Source: Gloeothece citriformis PCC 7424 (lineage in GTDB: Bacteria > Cyanobacteriota > Cyanobacteriia > Cyanobacteriales > Microcystaceae). From it: 64,000 bases of DNA. Below, piece by piece: positions 4,110 through 61,365 of the stretch (the stretch's first letter is position 1; the number at the start of each line of letters is the position of its first letter). Under the pieces are notes generated by a model. The model was not told the DNA's origin, did no database searches, and saw nothing but the letters and a program-made list of their open reading frames with translations. The stretch is taken from contig NC_011729.1 in assembly GCF_000021825.1 (NCBI RefSeq), positions 1,698,919-1,762,918 on the forward strand, in the 5' to 3' direction. The position numbers were made by a program, and so were the translations under genes.

Positions 4110-5513
4110 ATGACCTCTATGACAAAAACTGTTTCTGGCTCTAAAACTCCGGGTTTTCTACAACAAATTAATTGGGCGTTTGATCCTGTAAGCTATTTAG
4201 AAACCAATCATCAAAAATATCCCGATCTCTTTTTCACCCAGGCAGCGAGTGGAAATTATCCAATCGTCTATATTAGCCATCCCCAAGGGATACAACAAAT
4301 TTTAACCAATGATAAAAAACTCTTTTTGGCTTCTTCAGAGACTAACGATATTTTTCGTCCGTTACTCGGAGATTATTCCCTAATTTTATTAGAAAAAGAG
4401 CCTCATCAACAACGACGACAGTTGTTAGCTCCTCCTTTTCATGGCGAAAGATTATACAGTTATGGTCAATCAATCTGTAGAATAACTCAAGAAGTGATGA
4501 ATCGGCTAGGGGTAGGCAATCAGTTTACTGCTCGTAAAATAACTCAAAGTATCACAATGCAAGTGATCTTAGAAGTCGTTTTTGGCATTTATGAAGGAGA
4601 AAGATATCAACAACTGAAGACACTTCTCGGAAAAATGTTAGATATTTTCAATTCGCCTGTGTCTTCTGCTTTCCTTTTATTTTCGGCACTGCAAATTAAT
4701 TTAGGCTCTTGGAGTCCTTGGGGACAATTTTTACGTCAGAGAGCAAAAATTGATGAGTTAATTTATCAAGAAATAGCAGAACGTCGAGCTAATTTTGATC
4801 CCAATGCAACCGATATTCTCTCTTTATTAATGTCAGTTCGCTATGAAGACGGACAACCCATGACTGATAAAGAATTGCGTGATGAGTTGATGACCTTACT
4901 TGTTGCTGGCCATGATACCACGGCCACGGCGATGGCTTGGGGTTTATATTGGATTCATCATTTGCCAGAAGTCAAAGAAAAACTCTTACAAGAACTGGCC
5001 ACATTAGGAAATAATCCTGATCCGATGGAGATGGTTCGCCTTCCCTATTTAAGTGCTGTTTGTAATGAAACCCTCCGTATCACTCCAGTGGCCATGTTAA
5101 CTTTTCCTCGCATTGCTCAAGAACCGGTAGAGGTGATGGGATATACTATCGAACCCGGAACAGCCGTGTTAGGATGTATGTTTTTAACTCATCAACGAGA
5201 AGATTTATATCCTAATCCTAAACAATTTAAACCGGAGCGTTTCCTCGAAAATAAATATTCTCCCTATGAATTTATTCCTTTTGGGGGTGGCGCTCGTCGT
5301 TGTGTTGGGGATGCTTTAGCTCCTTTTGAGTTAAAGTTAGTTTTAGGGACTATTATGTCTAATTATGAACTTTCTTTAGCAGATAATCGCCCAGAAAAAT
5401 TACAACGACGAGGCTTAACTTTAGGCCCGGCCAGAGGAGTCAAAATGATTTTTAACGGAAAACGTCAACAAAAATCAGTTATGAGTCAAGAGTCATTAGT
5501 TAGTAGTCATTAG
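4110..5513 (+). CDS. Cytochrome P450, tandem paralogue
   Basis: AGHDTTA, ETLR and FGGGARRCVGDALA. Same architecture as the upstream P450, starting 23 bp after it. Confidence 0.9.
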   Translation: MTSMTKTVSGSKTPGFLQQINWAFDPVSYLETNHQKYPDLFFTQAASGNYPIVYISHPQGIQQILTNDKKLFLASSETNDIFRPLLGDYSLILLEKEPHQQRRQLLAPPFHGERLYSYGQSICRITQEVMNRLGVGNQFTARKITQSITMQVILEVVFGIYEGERYQQLKTLLGKMLDIFNSPVSSAFLLFSALQINLGSWSPWGQFLRQRAKIDELIYQEIAERRANFDPNATDILSLLMSVRYEDGQPMTDKELRDELMTLLVAGHDTTATAMAWGLYWIHHLPEVKEKLLQELATLGNNPDPMEMVRLPYLSAVCNETLRITPVAMLTFPRIAQEPVEVMGYTIEPGTAVLGCMFLTHQREDLYPNPKQFKPERFLENKYSPYEFIPFGGGARRCVGDALAPFELKLVLGTIMSNYELSLADNRPEKLQRRGLTLGPARGVKMIFNGKRQQKSVMSQESLVSSH

Positions 5514-6527: not shown

Positions 6528-6977
6528 CTAATCTTTCTGGTTTTCCCCAGTCTTTTTTTTTTGTTTAGCTATTCTTTGAAAAATATTTTGTACTTGTTCA
6601 GGACTTAATTGTTCATTTTTACTGACTTGCTCTACAGTGAGTTCTTTGACTTTTTCATAAATATGCTCTTCATAACGTTTAGTATAGTTTCTTCGCCTGT
6701 CTATAAAATTTAAAATTTCAGTTGGATATTTACCGCATTGGGAGCAGATAAATTGGCGACGTGGAACTTTCAGGTAAACTCCTTGACCTAAAATTGATAA
6801 ATCTCTAACTAAAATAGGGCGGATTTGATGAAGATTATCTGTATATGTTTGGCAATGAGGACAAGAAATTCCTTCGTTTATAAAATCTAATGTTAATAGA
6901 ATAAATCCTTCTTGTTGTTGACAAGTTAATACAGTTACAAAGGGAAGATGAAGCAAGCTATCAAGGTGAAAATCCAT
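6528..6977 (-). pseudogene. ISL3 transposase, N-terminal part (zinc-finger/HTH region)
   Basis: MDFHLDSLLHLPFVTVL start and CPHC...CSQCG zinc-binding pattern typical of ISL3 transposases. It ends just before a T10 homopolymer (~6549-6558). Confidence 0.6.
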
Positions 6978-7102
6978 AGACTCTTCGGGGGTAAAACGTA
7001 GCTATCGCTACATTTTACCCCATTATGTTGCAAGACCCGTTTTTGCTTAAGCGCGGGCTAAATAATATCAATTGTTAAAAATCAAACTAAACTATAGGTT
7101 TT

Positions 7103-7127
7103 GATGCGTTGGGAACGCATCCTACAA
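7103..7127. repeat. Palindromic repeat family 1 copy
   Basis: gatgcgttgggaacgcatcctacaa. Confidence 0.7.
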
Positions 7128-7149
7128 TTTCAAATTTTACAAAATTGGG

Positions 7150-8004
7150 CTAATCTTCAATTTCTAAGGCTAATTGATAAAGGTGACGACGGGGAAGAGA
7201 GGTTAATTGGGCTAAGTGACGACTCGCTTGCGATCGCGTCATTCCTTCTTCTAAAAGATGGTGTAATTCTATCTTTAATTGCTCCGGTGATAAGGTCTGT
7301 TTTTCATCTAATATTGCTCCCTCAATAACTATAGTAAATTCCCCTTTAGGAGAATGAGTTTGATAGAAAGCGATCGCTTCTTTTAAAGTTCCTCGCCAAA
7401 GTTCCTCATGAAGTTTAGTTAATTCCCTCCCTAAAACAATTTTTCGGGAATATCCTAACCCTTCTCCTAAATTCTCTAGGGTTTGTAATAGACGGTGGGG
7501 AGCTTCATAAAAAATTAGAGTGCGAGTTTCATGGGAGAGAGAACTAAGGCGATCGCGTTTTTCTCCTTCCTTAGTCGGTAAAAACCCCTCAAAAATAAAT
7601 CTATCCGTCGGTAAACCCGAAACCGCCAAAGCAGTTATAGCAGCAGTCACCCCAGGAATAGGAATAACGGAAATATTTTCCTGTACACAAGCTTTCACCA
7701 AATCATAACCCGGATCAGAAATACCCGGCATTCCCGCATCCGTCACCAAAGCAATATTTTCGCCTCTTTTTAACCGAGAAATTAACTCTAATGACCGAGA
7801 AAAACGGTTATGGTCGTGATAACTGATCTGAGGCGTGGTAATTTGAAAATGTTGTAATAACTTCCCTGTATGACGAGTATCTTCTGCTGCGATCGCATCT
7901 ACCTTTTGTAATATTTTAACCGCCCGGAACGTCATATCCTCCAAATTTCCGATCGGCGTTCCCACAACATAAAGACACCCCTGTTTTAACTCATCTGTGT
8001 TCAT
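7150..8004 (-). CDS. rsmI: 16S rRNA (cytidine1402-2'-O)-methyltransferase RsmI
   Basis: The N-terminal LYVVGTPIGNLEDMTFRA motif and full-length tetrapyrrole-methylase fold typical of RsmI. Confidence 0.9.
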   Translation of the reverse strand: MNTDELKQGCLYVVGTPIGNLEDMTFRAVKILQKVDAIAAEDTRHTGKLLQHFQITTPQISYHDHNRFSRSLELISRLKRGENIALVTDAGMPGISDPGYDLVKACVQENISVIPIPGVTAAITALAVSGLPTDRFIFEGFLPTKEGEKRDRLSSLSHETRTLIFYEAPHRLLQTLENLGEGLGYSRKIVLGRELTKLHEELWRGTLKEAIAFYQTHSPKGEFTIVIEGAILDEKQTLSPEQLKIELHHLLEEGMTRSQASRHLAQLTSLPRRHLYQLALEIED

Positions 8005-8020
8005 CTGCGTTCATCTGCGG
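7991..8020. repeat. Tandem decamer TCATCTG(Y)G(K) x3 overlapping the rsmI start and the rsmI/pfkB divergent promoter
   Basis: tcatctgtgttcatctgcgttcatctgcgg. Its reverse complement, GTCCGCAGATGAACGCAGATG, matches the core of the 110 bp repeat. Confidence 0.6.
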
Positions 8021-8031
8021 ACTTTTTTACC

Positions 8032-8889
8032 ATGAAAGGACTTTTTATCGGTTTATCTACCCTAGATTGTATTTATCTTATCTCTAGTATTCCCTCTGGA
8101 AATCAAAAAATAGTTGCTCTCGATCAAACCATTGCGGCGGGAGGCCCGGCCACTAATGCGGCGATTACATTTAACTATTTAGGCAATCAAACTACATTAT
8201 TAAGTGTGATCGGAAACCATCCCATTAGTCAACTCATTCGCGCCCAATTAAACCATTTAATGGTAATCGATTTAGATCCCCACTTTCAAGACAGTCCTTC
8301 AGTCTCTTCTATTTTAGTCACTCAATCGACCGGAGAAAGGGCAGTTATTGCGATTAATGCCAGTAAAATACAAGCGAGTTGTCAACACATACCAGAGGAT
8401 ATTTTAGAAGGGGTTGATATCGTTTTAATTGATGGACATCAAATGAAAGTCAGTGAAGCGATCGCCCAACAGGGCAAAAATCGTCAAATTCCTGTAGTTC
8501 TGGATGGAGGCAGTTGGAAAAATGGATTAGAAACCGTTTTACCCTATGTTGATTATGCCATTTGTTCAGCTAATTTTTATCCTCCTAATTGTCAGAATCA
8601 AGAGGAAATTTTCAGTTATTTATACCAGTTTAATATTCCTTTTATTGCCATTACTCAAGGAGAAAACCCGATTATTTATGGTGAAAAAAAACAAGTCAAT
8701 AACCTTGACGTTCCGGTTATTAACCCTGTAGATACGTTAGGAGCGGGAGACATTTTTCATGGGGCATTTTGTCATTATATTTTATCCTATGATTTTCGGG
8801 ATGCCTTAGAAAAAGCCTCTCAAATTGCGGCTTATTCCTGTCAATTTTTTGGGACTAGACAATGGATGGAAAACCGTCAAAACATTTAG
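8032..8889 (+). CDS. PfkB-family carbohydrate kinase (ribokinase-like)
   Basis: Ribokinase fold with the C-terminal DTLGAGDIFHGAF anion-hole motif. Confidence 0.8.
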   Translation: MKGLFIGLSTLDCIYLISSIPSGNQKIVALDQTIAAGGPATNAAITFNYLGNQTTLLSVIGNHPISQLIRAQLNHLMVIDLDPHFQDSPSVSSILVTQSTGERAVIAINASKIQASCQHIPEDILEGVDIVLIDGHQMKVSEAIAQQGKNRQIPVVLDGGSWKNGLETVLPYVDYAICSANFYPPNCQNQEEIFSYLYQFNIPFIAITQGENPIIYGEKKQVNNLDVPVINPVDTLGAGDIFHGAFCHYILSYDFRDALEKASQIAAYSCQFFGTRQWMENRQNI

Positions 8890-8896
8890 TTACGCG

Positions 8897-8922
8897 GAGA
8901 TGCGTTGGGAACGCATCCTACA
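8897..8922. repeat. Palindromic repeat family 1 copy
   Basis: gagatgcgttgggaacgcatcctaca, sited between convergent gene ends. Confidence 0.7.
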
Positions 8923-8935
8923 TAGAGATTGTTCA

Positions 8936-9580
8936 CTATTTCCCGCCGGCGGTTAATTTTTGCAAGAAAGCACTATTATCAAAATAATGCTCTACGGTTT
9001 CAATTTTTAAATCTTCGGTCACTTTGGCAATACTTAAGCCAATAATTTCAATGGTTTCTCCGGTGGGGTTAAACTCTTTGTAAGACCCTTTAAATGTTCC
9101 CCAGTGTCGCCATTTAAAGACCACATTAGGAGGCCCTGACACCACTTCAATTAATTCCCAATGAAACCCATTCGGGAAAGCGGTATGAAACAACTGATAA
9201 GATGAATCAAAATCTTCCTTTGAAGACTGATAATGTTCGGTATCCCCCATAAATAAATTATAAGTTCCTTTTTCTGCCACATCTTGGGCGGTGTATTGTT
9301 GCCCTCCGTTGCTGCTCATGCGAAACTTATCGGTAACGACTGATAACCATTGCTGAGGGTTCGTTTTATGGGATGCTTCCATCTCGAAAGTTTTGACTAA
9401 ATTATGAGCGATCGCATTGAGAGACCCTTGTGCATGATTAAACTTTCTTTCTTTGTCCCCATGAGGCTGAATTTCGCTATAGTCGGGACGTTCACCCCCT
9501 CGCCATTGTACACCGGCATCCTCAGCTAGAACTTTTTCCCGGTCTTGTACCCATAGAGGTAATTCGTTTATATTAGTCAT
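8936..9580 (-). CDS. NTF2-like/SnoaL-like (ester cyclase-type) domain protein
   Basis: The C-terminal half resembles SnoaL-like cyclase folds. The assignment is weak. Confidence 0.35.
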   Translation of the reverse strand: MTNINELPLWVQDREKVLAEDAGVQWRGGERPDYSEIQPHGDKERKFNHAQGSLNAIAHNLVKTFEMEASHKTNPQQWLSVVTDKFRMSSNGGQQYTAQDVAEKGTYNLFMGDTEHYQSSKEDFDSSYQLFHTAFPNGFHWELIEVVSGPPNVVFKWRHWGTFKGSYKEFNPTGETIEIIGLSIAKVTEDLKIETVEHYFDNSAFLQKLTAGGK

Positions 9581-9921
9581 GGCTCAAATAGTATAGTGTC
9601 AATACTTTACCCATACCTTAACTGTATTAGATCTTTCTCAAGGTAGATCCATAATTATGTACTTATTGTTATGAACACAAGACCAACTATTTAAATTGCG
9701 CGAATCATAATCACAAATTTTTCTCCAGTTGTACTATTAGTTTTAACGAACTCTTGCAAGAGCATGAATTTTCTCAAGAGGTTGAAATTTAAGTCTCATT
9801 TTAACGCCTGTCAATAATATGAGGTAGACTAGGTTGAAGAGATCTTAGCCATAAGCTGAGAGAAATAATAAATTGATTGTTGCTTATCTTTGGAATTTTG
9901 GGTTAACCAACAAGGGTCAAC

Positions 9922-25214: not shown

Positions 25215-26087
25215 ATGACTTATCTTAAAGATCAATCCAGTACAACAACACAAATTTTTATTAGTTATGTGGGATCAGATATAGTTGCTGCAAAAGCAAT
25301 TGTAGAAGGGTTAAGATCCCGTAATCTTGATGTGTGGTTGGATGAATATGAACTTAAAGCTGGAGAAAATTGGGTTGATTCTATTCGTAATGCTATTTCA
25401 GCAAGTTCCTACTTTTTCCTGCTACTATCCAAAGATTCTGTAAATTCCCCTTTTATAAATACCGAATTTATTTCTATACTTAAGGAATTGCAAATCCGAA
25501 ATATTACATTAATACCAATTCTTTTAGAAAATTGTGAGATTCCGCAACCGTTAGCCGTCTATCAGTTTTTCGATATGAGAAGCGGAATAGAGGAAAATTT
25601 AGACCAATTAGCTAATACTCTTAAATCTGCCTCAAAAATTGATTTTGAAAAATTAACTCCAAAAACATTTGACCAACTCGTTATAGATCTTCTTAAAAAA
25701 CTAGGTTTTGTCAATTCTAAGCTTAATAGTCAAATTAACGAGTTAGGTATTGACGCTATCGTAGAGTTTCCACAAAAAGACCCTTTTGGCTCTGAAATCC
25801 GTGAAATTTATTTAGTTGAAACTAAGTTTTATCGCCATTCTCGTCCTGATTTGCGAGCGCTTAGACAACTTGTTGAATATACTAAAATACTTTCTGAAAT
25901 TGATCAAGCCCTTCTTATTACTAACGGACAACTTACTTCTACTGCTCATGATTGGGCAAATGATGCAACAAAAAATACTGGTATTCCAATTCGTATTATT
26001 GATGGGACAGAATTGAAGCGACTTCTGCTACAAAACACCGATTTAGTTTCTCAATACTTTACTCCTATTCTGAGTAATGCTTCATGA
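25215..26087 (+). CDS. TIR domain fused to an Mrr-type restriction-endonuclease (PD-(D/E)xK) domain
   Basis: The N-terminal ~130 aa are TIR-like (IFISYVGSD…VWLDEYELKAGENWVDSIRNAI…FFLLLSKDSVNSPFINTEF). The C-terminus matches the Mrr catalytic domain (GIDAIV…VETKFY…ALLITNGQLTSTA…IRIIDGTEL). The gene is AT-rich. Confidence 0.8.
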   Translation: MTYLKDQSSTTTQIFISYVGSDIVAAKAIVEGLRSRNLDVWLDEYELKAGENWVDSIRNAISASSYFFLLLSKDSVNSPFINTEFISILKELQIRNITLIPILLENCEIPQPLAVYQFFDMRSGIEENLDQLANTLKSASKIDFEKLTPKTFDQLVIDLLKKLGFVNSKLNSQINELGIDAIVEFPQKDPFGSEIREIYLVETKFYRHSRPDLRALRQLVEYTKILSEIDQALLITNGQLTSTAHDWANDATKNTGIPIRIIDGTELKRLLLQNTDLVSQYFTPILSNAS

Positions 26088-26623
26088 GTGAAATTATTGA
26101 TTTAATCAAGTGGCTTGATAACTGTCCTGCTGGAAAAAAAGGATGGCGCGAATTTGAAGATCTCTGTGTAGATATTCTTAAATTTCTCTTTGTTCCTCCA
26201 TTAGTTGAACCTAAAATTCAATCTCGGACATACTCTGGCATAAATCGACGAGATGCTGTATTTCCTAATCGTAATTTTGAGCAAACAAAGGGTTGGGGGT
26301 TACTTTTACGTGAATTAAATGCAAGAATGGTACTTTTTGAATTTAAAAATTATGATTTAACAGAAATAGGAAAGGAGGAAGTTATTCAAACTGATAATTA
26401 TTTAACTGAACCAATGGGGAGACTTGGAATTATGGTATGTAATAAACTTCCTAATAATACAGCCCATATTCAACGAAATACTCTCTATAGTCGCAACCGT
26501 AAAGTAATTATTTTTATGACAAAAGCTCATTTAAAAGAAATGCTTTTGATTAAAGAACGAGGGGAAGATCCTTGTGATTTAATTATTGATCTCGTTGAGG
26601 AATTTTATTTACAACATGAATGA
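26084..26623 (+). CDS. Hypothetical PD-(D/E)xK-like nuclease-fold protein, translationally coupled to the TIR-Mrr gene
   Basis: Its start overlaps the upstream stop (ATGA). Motifs RRDAVF…VLFEFKNY fit a D…ExK pattern. No family was recognised. Confidence 0.45.
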   Translation: MSEIIDLIKWLDNCPAGKKGWREFEDLCVDILKFLFVPPLVEPKIQSRTYSGINRRDAVFPNRNFEQTKGWGLLLRELNARMVLFEFKNYDLTEIGKEEVIQTDNYLTEPMGRLGIMVCNKLPNNTAHIQRNTLYSRNRKVIIFMTKAHLKEMLLIKERGEDPCDLIIDLVEEFYLQHE

Positions 26624-50738: not shown

Positions 50739-50740
50739 TT

Positions 50741-50792
50741 GAGTCATGGGTCATGGGTCATGGGTCATTAGTCATTGGTCATTAGTAAGTCG
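50741..50792. repeat. Heptamer array (GTCATGG / GTCATTA)n
   Basis: gagtcatgggtcatgggtcatgggtcattagtcattggtcattagtaagtcg. Confidence 0.7.
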
Positions 50793-50867
50793 TTAGGTAT
50801 TAATCCTTGTTCGAGAAGGATTATTAATAATTAGTCGCTGATTAGTTATGAAAATCTAATAAAATAG

Positions 50868-50986
50868 TGACTAATGACTAATGTACAGACGTTGTATGCA
50901 ACGTCTCTACGACTGCTGACTAATGTACAGACGTTGTATGCAACGTCTCTACGACTACTGACTAATGACTACTGACTAATGACTAA
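50868..50986. repeat. Composite: TGACTAA heptamers flanking two copies of the family-5 palindrome, running into the ylqF start codon
   Basis: tgactaatgactaatgTACAGACGTTGTATGCAACGTCTCTACgactgctgactaatgTACAGACGTTGTATGCAACGTCTCTACgactactgactaatgactactgactaatgactaattc. Confidence 0.75.
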
Positions 50987-51824
50987 TTCTATACAATGGT
51001 ATCCAGGCCACATCGCCAAAGCCGAAAAAGAACTCAAAGAAAATCTTAAGCGAGTAGATGTAGTTTTAGAAGTTCTCGATGCTCGTATTCCTCTAGCTTC
51101 CCATCATCCTCAAGTGGGAGAATGGATAGGGACTAAACCTCGTATCTTAGTGCTGAACCGGGTTGATATGATCCCGGCTTCGGTGCAAAATCAATGGTTA
51201 AAATGGTTTAAAAGTCAAGGAGAAACCGCCTATTTTACCAATGCTAAACAAGGTCAAGGCATACAGGCTGTTAGTAAAGCCGCCCAAGCCGTAGGGGTGG
51301 AAATGAATCGTAAAAGGGGGGAACGGGGTTTATTACCTCGTCCGGTTCGGGCGGTGGTGATTGGCTTTCCTAATGTGGGAAAATCGGCTTTAATTAATCG
51401 ATTATTAGGCCGAAAAATTGTCGCTAGTGCCCGACGTGCCGGCGTGACTCGTCAACTCCGATGGGTACGCATTTCGGATGCCATAGAATTATTAGATGCT
51501 CCTGGGGTTATTCCTTCTAAATTAGAAGATCAAAATGATGCGATAAAGTTGGCTATTTGTGAAGATATTGGGGAAGCCGCTTATGATAATCAACGCATCG
51601 CCTCTAGTTTGATAGACTTATTAGTCAAGTTAGATTTTTTTTCGGTGTTAAAATCTCGTTATGGAGTTGATCCTTTAGAAGGAACTGGGGAAGACTATGT
51701 CTATAAATTAGCTCAAACTCGTTATCAAGAGGATAAAGAAAGGGCGGCTGTACAACTTTTAAATGATTTTCGCAAAGGATTTATGGGAGCTATTCCTTTA
51801 GAATTTCCTCCGACTAATCATTAA
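50979..51824 (+). CDS. rbgA: Ribosome biogenesis GTPase A (YlqF/RbgA)
   Basis: IQWYPGHIAKAEKEL start and a circularly permuted GTPase (NRVDMIP…GFPNVGKSALIN). Confidence 0.9.
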   Translation: MTNSIQWYPGHIAKAEKELKENLKRVDVVLEVLDARIPLASHHPQVGEWIGTKPRILVLNRVDMIPASVQNQWLKWFKSQGETAYFTNAKQGQGIQAVSKAAQAVGVEMNRKRGERGLLPRPVRAVVIGFPNVGKSALINRLLGRKIVASARRAGVTRQLRWVRISDAIELLDAPGVIPSKLEDQNDAIKLAICEDIGEAAYDNQRIASSLIDLLVKLDFFSVLKSRYGVDPLEGTGEDYVYKLAQTRYQEDKERAAVQLLNDFRKGFMGAIPLEFPPTNH

Positions 51825-52648
51825 GGGTTTAATACTTCATTAAGTACCGCTTCCACTTGTTCTAATCCACATCCTCCTTCCCCTTCAGCCCAATTTAAAA
51901 ATGCCGATACTCTTTGCCCCTGAGTGGTCATAGATGGGGGTATAATTCCTCTAGGGGGTGATAAGGTAAACATGATCATTTCTAACTGTTCTAACGGAAT
52001 TCCATTAAGCCCTTTCATTAACTGCATCCGAGTTTTAAATGAATTATTTTCTGCTGATTTTTTGGCCGGTTTAGGTTGATCTTGGGCTAATCTGGCTTCC
52101 ACTGCTTCTATAATTTCTTTAAAGTCGGATTGAAGATGTAAATTAGGAGTTAGAGTATTCATATTTTTCAGCAGATTAGTCAACTGAGCAATATTATTTC
52201 TAATCTCGGTGTAGAGATTAAGATCATCAGTAATGCCTTGTAAATTAGCCAGATTTCCTTGTTTCATCGCCGATTCAAGTTCACTGATTTGTTGTTCCCA
52301 ATGTTGAATATACTTTAAACGCCCTGTCGCCTGATAAATATTAGCATCTTCCAAAACAATCGGAAAAATGCGATCGTAGAAATCGCCGTGTTTAGCAATT
52401 TCCACCAATTCAAACATACAATTTTCGGATTTGAGATAGCGATCGCTAATAATAACCAGAATACACTTACCTTGTCCGATCTGCTCCATAAATTCCTTAA
52501 TCAGCCCTTTATAGCCTAAATTCGTCTTATCTCGGATAATGGTAATTCCCTGGTTCTGAAAAGCTTGTTCGAGTTGATTAGCGATTTTTTCGCTGTCGCC
52601 TCTCCAAGCGTAGGAAATAAAAACTTGAGGTGAACTATCTGTCTCCAT
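51821..52648 (-). CDS. TIR-domain protein with a C-terminal alpha-helical (effector-associated/death-like) domain
   Basis: N-terminal TIR (VFISYAWRGDSEKIANQLEQAFQNQGITIIRD…CILVIISDRYLKSENCMFELVEI). The C-terminal ~70 aa helical module is GIPLEQLEMIMFTLSPP…VSAFLNWAE…LEQVEAVLNEVL. Confidence 0.7.
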   Translation of the reverse strand: METDSSPQVFISYAWRGDSEKIANQLEQAFQNQGITIIRDKTNLGYKGLIKEFMEQIGQGKCILVIISDRYLKSENCMFELVEIAKHGDFYDRIFPIVLEDANIYQATGRLKYIQHWEQQISELESAMKQGNLANLQGITDDLNLYTEIRNNIAQLTNLLKNMNTLTPNLHLQSDFKEIIEAVEARLAQDQPKPAKKSAENNSFKTRMQLMKGLNGIPLEQLEMIMFTLSPPRGIIPPSMTTQGQRVSAFLNWAEGEGGCGLEQVEAVLNEVLNP

Positions 52649-52980
52649 CGTTAGCTGATTAATTGAATCTATGTTTCTATTTTGCCTAGTTTTCTCGGTC
52701 TGTCAAGCAGAAGAGACATTTAAATTAGGTATATTCTCTCTTGAAAATGAGATTAGATAAAAGTAAAAAGGTTAAAAAGGTTGAAACCCTTTACATTTTT
52801 AAATATCAAACATTGACTAGATTCTAATTGTCTAAAATGGACATAGCAGACTAGAATCTCTTAAACATAGTGATTAATATCACTGCTCTTATCTGTAGTC
52901 CAGATTATCTTAATAGTAAGGACAATCCCAAAAATAAAAATAGTTTTTCACTAGATAACAATGAACTAAGGAGAACCCCT

Positions 52981-53181
52981 ATGACTCTTGAAGAACAAAC
53001 TATCTATAAAATCCGTCAACTTCCCGATAATTTAATTAAACAAGTCCATGATTTTGTGGATTATCTTATAATTGAGGAAAATCATGATGATGAACTTGTG
53101 AATTTATGGGAGCAGTTTTCGACCCCTTCAGACAATATAGAAATCGAAATTTCTGATTTTTTTCTGACTGATGAACAATAA
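52981..53181 (+). CDS. DUF2281-like antitoxin-type small protein (alternative longer ORF from 52870)
   Basis: MTLEEQTIYKIRQLPDNLIKQVHDFVDYL matches the DUF2281 antitoxin pattern. An AGGAGA ribosome-binding site lies 7 nt upstream of this ATG. Confidence 0.45.
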   Translation: MTLEEQTIYKIRQLPDNLIKQVHDFVDYLIIEENHDDELVNLWEQFSTPSDNIEIEISDFFLTDEQ

Positions 53182-53292
53182 TTACCTCTCATTAATCATA
53201 AGTACCTGGACTTCCATCTTTGTGAACTGTGAAATTAGGCAACAGGGAAGGATTGGGATCATTTTACCATTCTTCACATAGCCCTTTTTTAT

Positions 53293-53793
53293 TTATGTCC
53301 GACTACTTATTTCTCCGTTAAATTCCTGGATAATAAAGGAATAATTAGAGGCTATTTGGACAGAATAAAGAGCATCAAATCCTTCTTTGTATGAAGGAAT
53401 GATTAACTTTTTATAGGTAGACAACAATCCGGCTAAGGGAACAATTTGTTTAGCTGAACGTTGTTGATTAAGTCTTTTAGAAGCTTCTAAATTAGGGGTA
53501 AAATAGTAACCAACTATCTGAAAATTATGGGCTTTAGCGGGTAAAATATAACGTTGTCTATCTTCCAGGGTAGGATTAGTATTATCGATGACAAAACGTT
53601 GTTTAGCCTCTAAGCAAGCTTGAACGAGAATTTTTTCTCGATGTCTAGTTTTGAGCATATCTAAATTAATACGAATATGACTATTAAAAAAATATTCCCG
53701 GTAAAAAGTGGATTTACCAGACGCTTGAATTCCCATAAAAATTACAACTTCCATAATCAATATAATCAATAATGGATAATGATAGAATATCAA
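53293..53793 (-). CDS. P-loop kinase of the polynucleotide-kinase / AAA_33 type
   Basis: Walker A GIQASGKSTF and the PNK-kinase VIDNTNP motif. The real start is probably the internal Met (MEVVIFMG). Confidence 0.6.
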   Translation of the reverse strand: MIFYHYPLLIILIMEVVIFMGIQASGKSTFYREYFFNSHIRINLDMLKTRHREKILVQACLEAKQRFVIDNTNPTLEDRQRYILPAKAHNFQIVGYYFTPNLEASKRLNQQRSAKQIVPLAGLLSTYKKLIIPSYKEGFDALYSVQIASNYSFIIQEFNGEISSRT

Positions 53794-53870: not shown

Positions 53871-53936
53871 ATGTGATTTGGGCAAGAGGTATAATAAATC
53901 ATTATCAATTATCAATTATCAATTATCAATTATTTA
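53871..53936. repeat. Family-7-like box plus (CAATTAT)n heptamer array abutting the downstream start codon
   Basis: tgtgatttgggcaagaggtataat … caattatcaattatcaattatcaattatttaatg. Confidence 0.6.
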
Positions 53937-55875: not shown

Positions 55876-56733
55876 ATGAAAAAATCTATTAAGGTTTTGA
55901 GAGGAATAATCTGTCTAGCGATTTGTTTTACATTAGCGAGTTGTACCTATGCTTTACCGATGAAAGCTGCTCCTTTAACCGTAATGAGTTATAACGTTGA
56001 ATCCGATGATATTAATGATACTAATCCGAGGTTAGTTGCTGAAGATATTGAAAGAATTAGAAGCAATATGCCCATTGATATTTGGGGACTTTCGGAAGTA
56101 TTAAATCAAGAGGCGGCGGACATTTTTACCGATGCTATTTCATCCCCTGATACGGAATATCGTTCTATTTTAGGCACAACCGGAGGAGCAGATCAACTGC
56201 AAATTGTTTATAATCCAGAGACGGTAAGATTAATTGATACTCAAGAATTAAGGAATTCTGGCGGAACTCGCGCCCCTTTAGTTGCTCACTTTGAATTACT
56301 GGGTAATGGTCGAGAATTTTTATTTACTGTTAATCATTTTAACCGAGGAGATGAAGACAGAAGAAATCAACAAGCTCGTTTTTTAAGAGAGTGGGGGGCA
56401 GAACAAACTTTACCGATTGTTGCGGTTGGGGATTATAATTTTGATTATGACCCTCAAACACAATCAGGTAATGAAGCTTTTGATATTTTTTTAGAGGACG
56501 ATACTTTTATTTGGATTAGACCTGAGTGTTTAGCTGATAATTCTTGTCCTCCTACAGGAACTCAATGTAACCCAACCTATAACAGTATTCTTGATTTTGT
56601 CTTTGTCTCAGAACGCGCTACTCAATGGGATAATATATCTGATATTCTCTTAATCGATGAGCCGGTTTGTGAAAAAGAAAGTAGGGGTTATTCGGATCAT
56701 CGCCCGGTTGTTGCTTCTTTTGATGTTTATTAA
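55876..56733 (+). CDS. Endonuclease/exonuclease/phosphatase (EEP) family lipoprotein
   Basis: Lipobox LASC. The C-terminal SDHRPV is the EEP catalytic His motif. Confidence 0.8.
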   Translation: MKKSIKVLRGIICLAICFTLASCTYALPMKAAPLTVMSYNVESDDINDTNPRLVAEDIERIRSNMPIDIWGLSEVLNQEAADIFTDAISSPDTEYRSILGTTGGADQLQIVYNPETVRLIDTQELRNSGGTRAPLVAHFELLGNGREFLFTVNHFNRGDEDRRNQQARFLREWGAEQTLPIVAVGDYNFDYDPQTQSGNEAFDIFLEDDTFIWIRPECLADNSCPPTGTQCNPTYNSILDFVFVSERATQWDNISDILLIDEPVCEKESRGYSDHRPVVASFDVY

Positions 56734-60249: not shown

Positions 60250-61365
60250 ATGAAAAAAAGATTAGTCATTTGCTGCGATGGGACATGGCAGGAATTGGGG
60301 AGTACCTATCCAACTAATGTTATAAAACTGGCACGGTTAGTTAAATATATTGCTGATGATACAACCCCTCAACTGGTTTTATATTTACCAGGATGTGGAA
60401 CAGAAGTTAATCCTATAGAGCGTTTAGGGGGCGGTGCATTTGGATGGGGAATTGACAAAATTATTCAAGAAGCCTATCGCTTTTTATGTATAAATTATAG
60501 CTCCGAGACTCAGGATGAAATTTACCTATTTGGTTTTAGCCGAGGAGCTTATCTTGCTCGTTCTCTGGCTGGCATGATTTATAATTGTGGGATCTTACAA
60601 CGTTCTTTAATCCTAGAAATTCCTCAAGCCTATGAATTTTATCGAAACCGAAACATTAAACCTCGTTCTAAAGAAGCTAGAGATTTCCGTAAATACAAAT
60701 CACAAAGGATTAATGGGTCATATTTTATTCCTATCAAAATGTTAGGATGTTGGGATACAGTCGGAGCATTAGGAATTCCTGAGATAGTTCCTTGGTTACC
60801 CATTGCTGACTTATGGAATCAAAGATATAATTTTCATGATTATGAACTCAGCCCAATTATTGAAAATGCTTTTCATGCAGTAGCTATTGATGAAAAACGT
60901 AAAACTTTTACCCATACTCCTATGTATAAAAATGATAACAAACCCGATCAAGTTGTTGAAGAAGTCTGGTTTGCTGGTGAGCATGGTTGTGTTGGAGGAG
61001 GCACAGAAAAACATCGAGGCTTATCAGATTTTGCGTTAGAATGGATGATCAGTAAAGCAAAAAATTTAGGCTTAGAGTTTTGTCCCACAGAAAAAGAGGA
61101 GGATATAGAATTTCAGATTCTGCCTGATGCAACCATAGATTTTGATAATAGTGTTGAGCTACTTTTTCGCTTAGGAGGAGTAGGATGGCGAGACCTAGTA
61201 GACAAAAATCGTAAAATTTCTGATGATGGTATTCAAGTAGCTCCTAAAATTCATTCTAGTGTTATAGAACGGCTAAAAGCTCGTAAAGATTATCGTCCAG
61301 AAAATTTAAAACTCTTCCTTAATTTTGCTGAATTTTTCTCTCCTAAGTCTTTAAAACAATATTAA
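60250..61365 (+). CDS. DUF2235-family alpha/beta hydrolase (Tle1-like phospholipase fold)
   Basis: LVICCDGTWQ start and a GFSRGA nucleophile-elbow motif. Confidence 0.75.
   Translation: MKKRLVICCDGTWQELGSTYPTNVIKLARLVKYIADDTTPQLVLYLPGCGTEVNPIERLGGGAFGWGIDKIIQEAYRFLCINYSSETQDEIYLFGFSRGAYLARSLAGMIYNCGILQRSLILEIPQAYEFYRNRNIKPRSKEARDFRKYKSQRINGSYFIPIKMLGCWDTVGALGIPEIVPWLPIADLWNQRYNFHDYELSPIIENAFHAVAIDEKRKTFTHTPMYKNDNKPDQVVEEVWFAGEHGCVGGGTEKHRGLSDFALEWMISKAKNLGLEFCPTEKEEDIEFQILPDATIDFDNSVELLFRLGGVGWRDLVDKNRKISDDGIQVAPKIHSSVIERLKARKDYRPENLKLFLNFAEFFSPKSLKQY

Follow-up and report, generated by a model that had tools for sequence, protein, structure and literature searches.

A TIR protein with a four-helix C-terminal module in Gloeothece citriformis PCC 7424 and its candidate NACHT partner

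The TIR gene ACK70026 and its C-terminal module

The window (the whole 64-kb stretch of DNA analysed), part of the 5.94-Mb chromosome of Gloeothece citriformis PCC 7424, carries at 51821-52648 on the reverse strand a gene for a putative TIR effector with a C-terminal adaptor-like module (275 amino acids (aa) plus stop). Its product is 100% identical to ACK70026.1 / WP_012598970.1, deposited for PCC 7424 under the name 'TIR protein'. The left neighbour is ylqF (TIGR03596, 311 bits), and the stop codons of the two genes, both readable at 51821-51824, overlap on opposite strands (TAA of ylqF at 51822-51824; stop of ACK70026 as the reverse complement of 51821-51823). A promoter-like TTGACA-16-CAAAAT (52679-52706, reverse strand) located 30 nt upstream of the ACK70026 ATG matches at 10 of 12 positions; it is weak evidence, the count of such sites in the region being not above the shuffled expectation. 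The encoded protein, all of whose parts are read from the reverse strand, comprises a TIR domain (residues ~7-165; 52154-52630; recognised by Pfam, phmmer and Foldseek) with an alpha/beta core (8-98) and two long helices (107-130, 133-162); two short helices (residues 168-189; 52082-52147; assigned by DSSP on the full-length model) that end the unit conserved in this TIR subfamily; a low-complexity linker (residues ~190-200; 52049-52081; QDQPKPAKKSA...); and a C-terminal four-helix adaptor-like module of ~75 aa (residues 201-275; 51824-52048), which resembles an effector-associated domain (EAD) and is without a Pfam model. The AlphaFold2 (AF2) model of the full-length protein has a predicted local distance difference test score (pLDDT) of 88.6, the linker being its sole low-confidence internal block (pLDDT 57).

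The TIR domain exceeds the cutoffs of two Pfam families (TIR_2, 52.5 bits against a cutoff of 28, residues 9-119; TIR, 27.6 bits against 21.3). The nearest solved sequences are the TIR domains of plant nucleotide-binding leucine-rich-repeat (NLR) proteins, namely RPV1 (phmmer E 2e-5, residues 8-152), RUN1, Roq1 and RPP1, and Foldseek with the full-length model returned the TIRs of RUN1, RPS4, RPPT, Roq1 and RPP1 (probability 1.0; template-modelling (TM) score 0.63-0.73 normalised to the target for the first four). Glu80, the putative catalytic glutamate (codon 52409-52411, reverse strand; ttc on the forward strand, gaa in the coding sense; motif S-E-N-C-M-F-E-L), does not vary among 47 aligned sequences of the subfamily. 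Since SENCMFELVEI aligns with SRWCLDELVKI of RPV1 and RUN1, Glu80 falling on the Glu of C-L-D-E-L, it occupies the catalytic-glutamate position of the plant TIRs, presumably that of RUN1 E100, to which the title of PDB entry 7s2z also points. Because this residue is retained, ACK70026 is predicted to cleave NAD+, and it is probably activated once its TIR domains are brought together. System-specific PADLOC models did not match the protein; only weak, partial matches to the TIR core were found (bSEFIR 33.5, SAVED_TIR 28.7 and PDC-S66 27.3 bits), indicating that ACK70026 belongs to no catalogued defence system, Thoeris, CBASS-TIR and bSEFIR included.

Most of the 1242 homologues of ACK70026 cover only residues 1 to ~185 (60-70% identity), and relatives of this TIR unit bear other terminal modules in place of its tail. 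Pfam recognises EAD1 (66.6 bits), EAD8 (73.5 bits) and EAD11 (68.5 bits) among them, with EAD7 (30.2 bits) just under its cutoff of 32; these recognised EADs are fused at the N-terminus of the TIR unit, not at the C-terminus. A tail of the ACK70026 type is kept at the C-terminus in few relatives (P0002, P0003, P0005, P0011).

The tail was modelled with confidence by AF2 from a 14-sequence alignment (pLDDT 93.2; predicted TM score 0.81) as four helices (2-15, 19-29, 43-55 and 62-73 of the tail), which the full-length model reproduces. The family-wide module measures ~72 aa, has no enzymatic features and follows the consensus RL.Li.tLn.Lpp.QFn.LvFaLnPP.G.iPp..ApQGdRv.ALL.WAEsPtGcGL..vq..L..il. 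It includes an invariant Trp at module position 53, which is W253 in ACK70026, and a G-C-G-L turn. The sequence-only reading, made from the letters of this DNA, had described an N-terminal TIR domain, a ~70-aa helical module behind it and a stop overlapping that of ylqF, and these results bear it out on all three. It had also likened the tail to effector-associated and death-like domains, a comparison for which the profile searches gave no support. The tail alone, the last 170 aa and ten diverse copies of the module matched no Pfam family at E<=10, and scans with NCBIfam and PADLOC returned nothing for the tail. The Pfam EAD models that appeared in the outputs were EAD1, 7, 8, 9 and 11, the remaining ones being presumed in the library; in P0006, which EAD1 matches at residues 89-174, the module region is left uncovered. 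Profile-profile comparison by hhalign with the four EADs for which alignments could be built gave probabilities of 17.8% (EAD1), 22.0% (EAD7), 0.7% (EAD8) and 1.7% (EAD11), compared to 89.7% for the EAD1-EAD7 control, and the sole stretch in common was an 'a..LL.WAe' helix of 16-18 columns.

Similarity to the death fold is likewise weakly supported. The best match in a sequence-profile search of the PDB was to unrelated proteins (E 0.38), and Foldseek with the tail model placed pyrin domains at the head of its list at non-significant scores (best E 1.5; TM 0.48-0.56). Compared to the death-fold domains (CARD, PYD, DED and DD, and the bacterial CARD-like 8SRZ, 8SS1 and 9FRR; PMC10312443), the module has in common that one type of domain is carried by an NLR-like NTPase as well as by an effector. 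It differs in length (~72 aa against 85-95 aa), in the lack of sequence or profile similarity, in its effector, which is a TIR and not a caspase-like or trypsin-like protease, and in its predicted fold, with four helices and, at the place of helix 3, a Pro-rich loop of 13 residues, against the six helices of the death fold. The module acts like, and in the model somewhat looks like, a death-fold adaptor; membership of the superfamily is not established because the modelled helices are four, not six.

Distribution of the module and a second copy in the same genome

An exhaustive search of 1.84 billion representatives with a 14-sequence hidden Markov model (HMM) of the module returned 920 representative clusters at E<=1e-3, 593 of them at E<=1e-10. 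A word-indexed database profile search with the tail had returned 11 short proteins only; this type of search apparently overlooks long multi-domain proteins if given a short query. Across 169 proteins the module was N-terminal in 66 cases, C-terminal in 64, internal in 44 and stand-alone in 16, so that 130 of 190 occurrences were terminal, in addition to the 16 stand-alone copies; P0006 and P0012, for instance, carry the ~72-aa module at the N-terminus or internally. The fusion hosts (n=98) include putative effector, sensor and adaptor families: TIR_2 (33), Pentapeptide (11), AAA_16 (8), CHAT (7), TRADD-like_N (7), EAD1 (6), NACHT (5), nSTAND1 (4), nSTAND3 (4), Trypsin_2 (3), NB-ARC (3), PNP_UDP_1 (2) and EAD9 (2). 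Individual architectures (module-nSTAND1/NACHT, module-NB-ARC-TPR (P0245), module-nSTAND1-pentapeptide, module-NACHT, module-PNP phosphorylase, module-ANF_receptor, X-TIR-module and EAD8-NB-ARC-module) place the module both on effectors and at the N-terminus of sensor NTPases.

Paired copies were sought by running the module HMM against the six-frame open reading frames (ORFs) of the fetched loci. In a metagenomic locus (L002), which encodes the closest full-length homologue (P0005), an ORF with an N-terminal module directly follows the TIR-module gene, and the two modules are 80% identical, compared to at most 55% identity to any other of the ~190 modules. A stand-alone module protein is divergent from an LRR-Roc-COR GTPase gene whose product ends in the module (L004), and two adjacent module proteins are encoded on a plasmid of Gloeothece verrucosa (L009). 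Module copies from Gloeothece are 57-76% identical mutually, compared to 28-47% identity to the copies that alignment A2 contains from other proteins. At least four copies belong to G. verrucosa PCC 7822: that of the chromosomal orthologue of the TIR-module gene, one in a 94-aa protein likewise encoded on the chromosome, and those of two plasmid-encoded proteins of 180 and 87 aa. The G. verrucosa orthologue of ACK70026 (67% identical; L001) is on the same strand as the gene for a 911-aa NB-ARC-like/TPR protein (6888-9623 of that locus) and precedes it by 60 nt, an arrangement that resembles a 'split TNL', that is, a divided TIR-type NLR. Searching the plasmids of PLSDB with the tail (tblastn) returned copies in G. 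verrucosa and Calothrix and none on a PCC 7424 plasmid, the inclusion of PCC 7424 plasmids in PLSDB being unconfirmed.

Several of these loci have further features. The stand-alone type in L004 (3640-4023) is one of a group of 127-133-aa proteins (P0123-P0127) that combine a conserved N-terminal MNSPALEIWQKKLxFLQQQEAIxADP...KIAEL, coiled-coil-like by eye, with a C-terminal module; besides the member divergent from the LRR-Roc-COR GTPase with a terminal module, another adjoins kaiC. FGS (formylglycine-generating-enzyme) domains are a hallmark of published cyanobacterial conflict systems, and the module pair on the G. verrucosa plasmid (NC_014534; L009 5297-6304 and 3602-5161) lies near an FGS-family gene, as well as near genes for a GIY-YIG nuclease, a thermonuclease and several transposases. 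In L002, an MMR_HSR1 GTPase gene (4460-5182) lies ~800 nt upstream of the TIR-module gene; this echoes, in a different orientation, the adjacency to ylqF in PCC 7424, and may be coincidence or a remnant of synteny.

A second copy of the module is encoded on the chromosome of PCC 7424 itself. ACK71970.1 (P0402; 778 aa; 'putative signal transduction protein with Nacht domain') was found in the 90% cluster of P0147, which is among the modules closest to the ACK70026 tail. Its residues 3-73 form the module (94 bits with the HMM), which matches the tail at 57% identity in an ungapped alignment of 69 residues (E 3e-26) and shares with it the heptapeptide GIIPPSM. A NACHT domain spans residues 181-331 (43.1 bits, cutoff 26.7; Walker A GEPGSGKT), and residues 455-708 contain 6-7 strongly hydrophobic, predicted transmembrane segments, so that ACK71970 appears to be a membrane-embedded STAND (signal transduction ATPase with numerous domains) NTPase lacking the usual LRR, TPR or WD40 sensor repeats. 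The two genes are probably far apart on the chromosome, given that their accession numbers differ by ~1,900. The sequence-only reading had suggested that the TIR protein might be one component of a dispersed adaptor-domain network, and the recurrence of the module on this NACHT protein, together with the G. verrucosa copies, supports that suggestion.

Adaptor coupling and its alternatives

Section 30 of PMC7159879 defines EADs as small non-enzymatic domains, terminal and usually all-helical, with copies on a core NTPase and on effectors, the second copy often in an adjacent gene, and the copies that are adjacent or of the same lineage being closest to each other. At the level of the family the module has these properties: it is small, terminally biased and non-enzymatic, it occurs on NTPase cores and effectors, and its adjacent copies are the closest. 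By these operational criteria it behaves as a member of the EAD class, so that the assignment of the tail as an effector-associated adaptor holds in architecture, terminal position and paired copies, although no named EAD model matches it. Compared to EAD1-EAD11 and bDLD1-3 (Kaur, Burroughs, Iyer and Aravind; eLife 2020, PMC7159879; eLife 2021, PMC8195603), further likenesses are the all-helical prediction, the range of effectors (TIR, CHAT caspase, trypsin, PNP phosphorylase, TRADD-N) set against STAND NTPase N-termini, the several copies per genome, the concentration in cyanobacteria, the co-occurrence with EAD1, EAD8 and EAD9 in single proteins, and the presence of EAD1, EAD7, EAD8 or EAD11 on the same TIR subfamily in other species. 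The module differs from them in the absence of a matching Pfam EAD model, in the low hhalign probabilities given above, and in its partners, which are STAND (NACHT, nSTAND1, NB-ARC) and Roc-COR proteins, whereas the published core systems are mostly vWA-MoxR ternary systems or built on a GAP1 GTPase. The searchable parts of the supplements of PMC7159879 and PMC8195603 had no entry for the module accessions (ACK70026, WP_012598970, WP_013321399, NEQ47811, WP_013335085/4) and nothing relevant for the motif strings or 'EAD12', and the family might figure in the source data under some label. EAD-coupled effectors in cyanobacteria are an already published concept; what is new here, as far as these tools can tell, is the unmodelled adaptor family and the sensor-effector pair of PCC 7424.

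On balance, ACK70026 probably serves as the effector component of an NLR-like immune or programmed-death system, of the STAND NTPase type, whose genes are unlinked. The tail of ACK70026 would be a non-enzymatic coupling adaptor of the EAD class, with the matching module at the N-terminus of a sensor NTPase, here ACK71970. Upon a trigger the NACHT sensor would oligomerise, clustering its N-terminal modules; the clustered modules would recruit ACK70026 through homotypic module-module contacts; the TIR domains thus brought together would hydrolyse NAD+ or synthesise a signalling nucleotide; and growth arrest or death of the infected or damaged cell would follow. As in plant TNL receptors and bacterial TIR-STAND proteins, the TIR is of the RPV1, RUN1, Roq1 and RPP1 type with the catalytic Glu conserved, and its activation is predicted to proceed by NTPase-driven clustering. 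Unlike in those receptors, TIR and NTPase are on separate, distantly encoded polypeptides, presumed to be joined non-covalently via the adaptor module, and the LRR or TPR sensor repeats are replaced in ACK71970 by a multi-pass membrane region.

Several observations weigh against this interpretation. The window contains a single copy of the module and no STAND NTPase, so that the closeness of adjacent copies expected of an EAD is not found at the locus itself and the candidate partner is unlinked; the PCC 7424 genome has at least two copies (ACK70026 and ACK71970), an incomplete count. In G. verrucosa the TIR-module gene is linked in an operon to a module-less NB-ARC-TPR gene, which departs from a homotypic rule. 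A simple adaptor role does not predict the internal and tandem copies of the module or its fusions to pentapeptide and periplasmic-binding-type domains; arrays of 4-7 copies occur in P0132 (810 aa, Nodosilinea), P0133 (1583 aa), P0134 and P0136, that of P0132 without any other Pfam domain, and such arrays might serve as multivalent hubs. Both the NADase activity and the homotypic binding are predictions from sequence.

The G. verrucosa linkage leads to a different model, which we consider quite unlikely, in which the tail docks heterotypically on a module-less STAND NTPase, for example on the TPR array of an NB-ARC-TPR protein, and the operon sets the partner. The 911-aa STAND protein, encoded on the same strand only 60 nt downstream, begins at its P-loop region without an N-terminal effector or adaptor, and the TIR tail is the only module in the 12.8-kb locus, as such docking would have it; however, PCC 7424 has no such NB-ARC-TPR neighbour, the same NB-ARC-TPR architecture elsewhere (P0245) does bear an N-terminal module, and module pairs on adjacent genes are common, the pair in L002 being nearly identical. 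The tandem and internal copies (44 internal positions) suit better a unit with a general role in regulation, self-association or the binding of a ligand, for instance an autoinhibitory cap or sensor repeat, with the TIR protein acting alone, and the pentapeptide fusions (11 of 98 hosts), the ANF_receptor/periplasmic-binding-domain fusion and the stand-alone copies beside unrelated genes such as KaiC can be read in the same sense. This second alternative seems to us unlikely: the terminal bias, the split between effectors and NTPase N-termini, the close adjacent pairs and the copy on a NACHT protein of the same genome all match the adaptor model, and a sensor or autoinhibitor would need none of them.

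To our knowledge, adaptor-domain coupling in bacterial NLR-like immunity has been experimentally tested only for CARD-like domains in gasdermin systems. These domains, carried by a protease and an NLR-like protein and essential for gasdermin defence, are the closest tested precedent (PMC10312443) for the coupling of ACK70026 to a sensor NTPase. According to the computational proposal, small adaptor domains plug interchangeable effectors into NLR-like sensor NTPases, and the locus described here adds to these a large family without a Pfam model. A single genome offers a clean two-protein test case (TIR-module plus module-NACHT-membrane), which neighbourhood annotation of the PADLOC style would miss because the genes are unlinked; a profile of the module would allow dispersed sensor-effector pairs to be found across cyanobacteria. 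A stronger form of the proposal can be put forward only tentatively: the tail would belong to unmodelled but widespread (~900 clusters), minimal four-helix adaptors of death-fold-like type that wire unlinked genes together, and ACK71970 would recruit and activate soluble ACK70026 purely homotypically. If true, this would be a bacterial counterpart of PYD/CARD inflammasome assembly that makes use of a smaller, reduced fold, and should the fold prove to be a reduced death fold it would bear on the evolution of CARD/PYD-type adaptors.

Neighbouring genes and other features of the window

Two further genes lie beyond the start of ACK70026: ACK70027 (52981-53181, forward strand), a 66-aa ORF with a sub-threshold DUF2281/VapB-like N-terminus and no evidence of a functional link, and ACK70028 (53293-53754, reverse strand), a stand-alone PNKP-like P-loop kinase of 153 aa. 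Both deposited models are shorter than the mechanical ORFs. For ACK70027, a start at GTG 52870 (103 aa) was rejected in favour of the ATG at 52981, preceded by 'aggag', where both the deposited model and the DUF2281-like segment begin. Its matches are confined to the first ~30 residues (DUF2281, just 21 residues at 19.6 bits where the cutoff is 26.5; NCBIfam TA_VapB, 21.1 bits with a cutoff of 60), its precomputed Pfam field is empty ('-'), and no plasmid homologues were found. No toxin-like (PIN/VapC) ORF adjoins it: the kinase gene, which is convergent to it, has its 3' end only 111 nt beyond the stop of ACK70027, and no other ORF lies there. The DUF2281-type antitoxin-like ORF of the sequence-only reading is therefore present and without an adjacent toxin, as described, and is shorter than had been listed, with a family match below threshold.

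The kinase fared better: the PNK-like P-loop assignment, with its VIDNTNP motif and its convergence on the small ORF, was confirmed. ACK70028 exceeds the cutoff of AAA_33 (45.1 bits, cutoff 27), scores 45.7 bits with the kinase part of TIGR01663, and aligns with the kinase domain of mammalian PNKP (3u7g, 1yj5; E 5e-11) through a GxxGxGKST Walker A, the catalytic Asp and an identical VIDNTNP. Compared to mammalian PNKP and bacterial Pnkp, it is a kinase domain only, without a phosphatase or ligase domain. Over 5000 homologues at 64-76% identity occur across cyanobacteria, some of them with Thg1-like, RNA-ligase and Pnkp neighbours. In two loci, from Nostoc CENA543 and from a Prochloraceae genome (L011 4001-5201; L012 4001-7974), the kinase gene overlaps a downstream Thg1/Thg1C gene by 11 nt, and after the latter comes a gene for either a bacterial Pnkp (AAA_33 + Metallophos + PNKP_ligase) or an RNA ligase; L011 also has RlaP nucleotidyltransferase genes immediately upstream of the kinase. 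The arrangement resembles an operon for RNA 5'-end repair. The kinase gene of PCC 7424 is solitary.

Conflict systems do include kinases of the PNK type and small proteins resembling antitoxins, and the three genes are adjacent in a segment that is richer in AT (GC 0.30-0.38) than the pgk-ylqF side (0.39-0.46), which could be taken to mean that they work together as a conflict or stress mini-island, as the sequence-only reading had proposed for the TIR gene, the DUF2281-like ORF and the PNK-like kinase. We consider this very improbable. The divergent and convergent orientations mean that the three genes are not an operon; the G. verrucosa orthologue of ACK70026 shares none of these neighbours; the kinase homologues lie in RNA-repair operons (L011, L012), with no TIR or DUF2281 gene beside the kinase in the three loci inspected (L010-L012); and the small ORF is sub-threshold for DUF2281 and VapB and has no toxin partner. 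Nor does the segment have the signatures of an island: no tRNA genes and no bracketing repeats were found around it, the low GC extends as far as the PPOX and CobW genes, housekeeping genes flank the segment, and neither the small ORF nor the kinase has a PADLOC match.

ACK70026 is, as had been stated, the second TIR protein of the window. The first (25215-26087, forward strand; 290 aa) combines TIR_2 (87.4 bits) with an Mrr_cat restriction-endonuclease-fold domain (60.2 bits), is without the adaptor module, and is encoded immediately downstream of a gene for a photosynthetic reaction-centre protein (Photo_RC, PsbA/PsbD type); an overlapping 179-aa ORF without a Pfam match (26084-26623) comes after it. 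Two possible effector-like enzymes are encoded amid housekeeping genes: a protein of the Exo_endo_phos (EEP) family with an N-terminus resembling a lipoprotein signal (...FTLASC; 55876-56733, forward strand), and a protein with the phospholipase catalytic domain of the type VI secretion system Tle1-like family (280 bits; 60250-61365, forward strand). Short tandem heptamers of the TGGGTCA and TGACTAA types occupy the intergenic region 50740-50990 upstream of ylqF, which also contains a 42-nt tandem duplication with a palindrome (ACAGACGTTGTATGCAACGTCT), and 5-6 copies of ATTATCA are found in the intergenic region 53895-53935, upstream of the gene for a PPOX-type flavoprotein; the heptamers at both sites resemble the short tandemly repeated repetitive (STRR) sequences of cyanobacteria.

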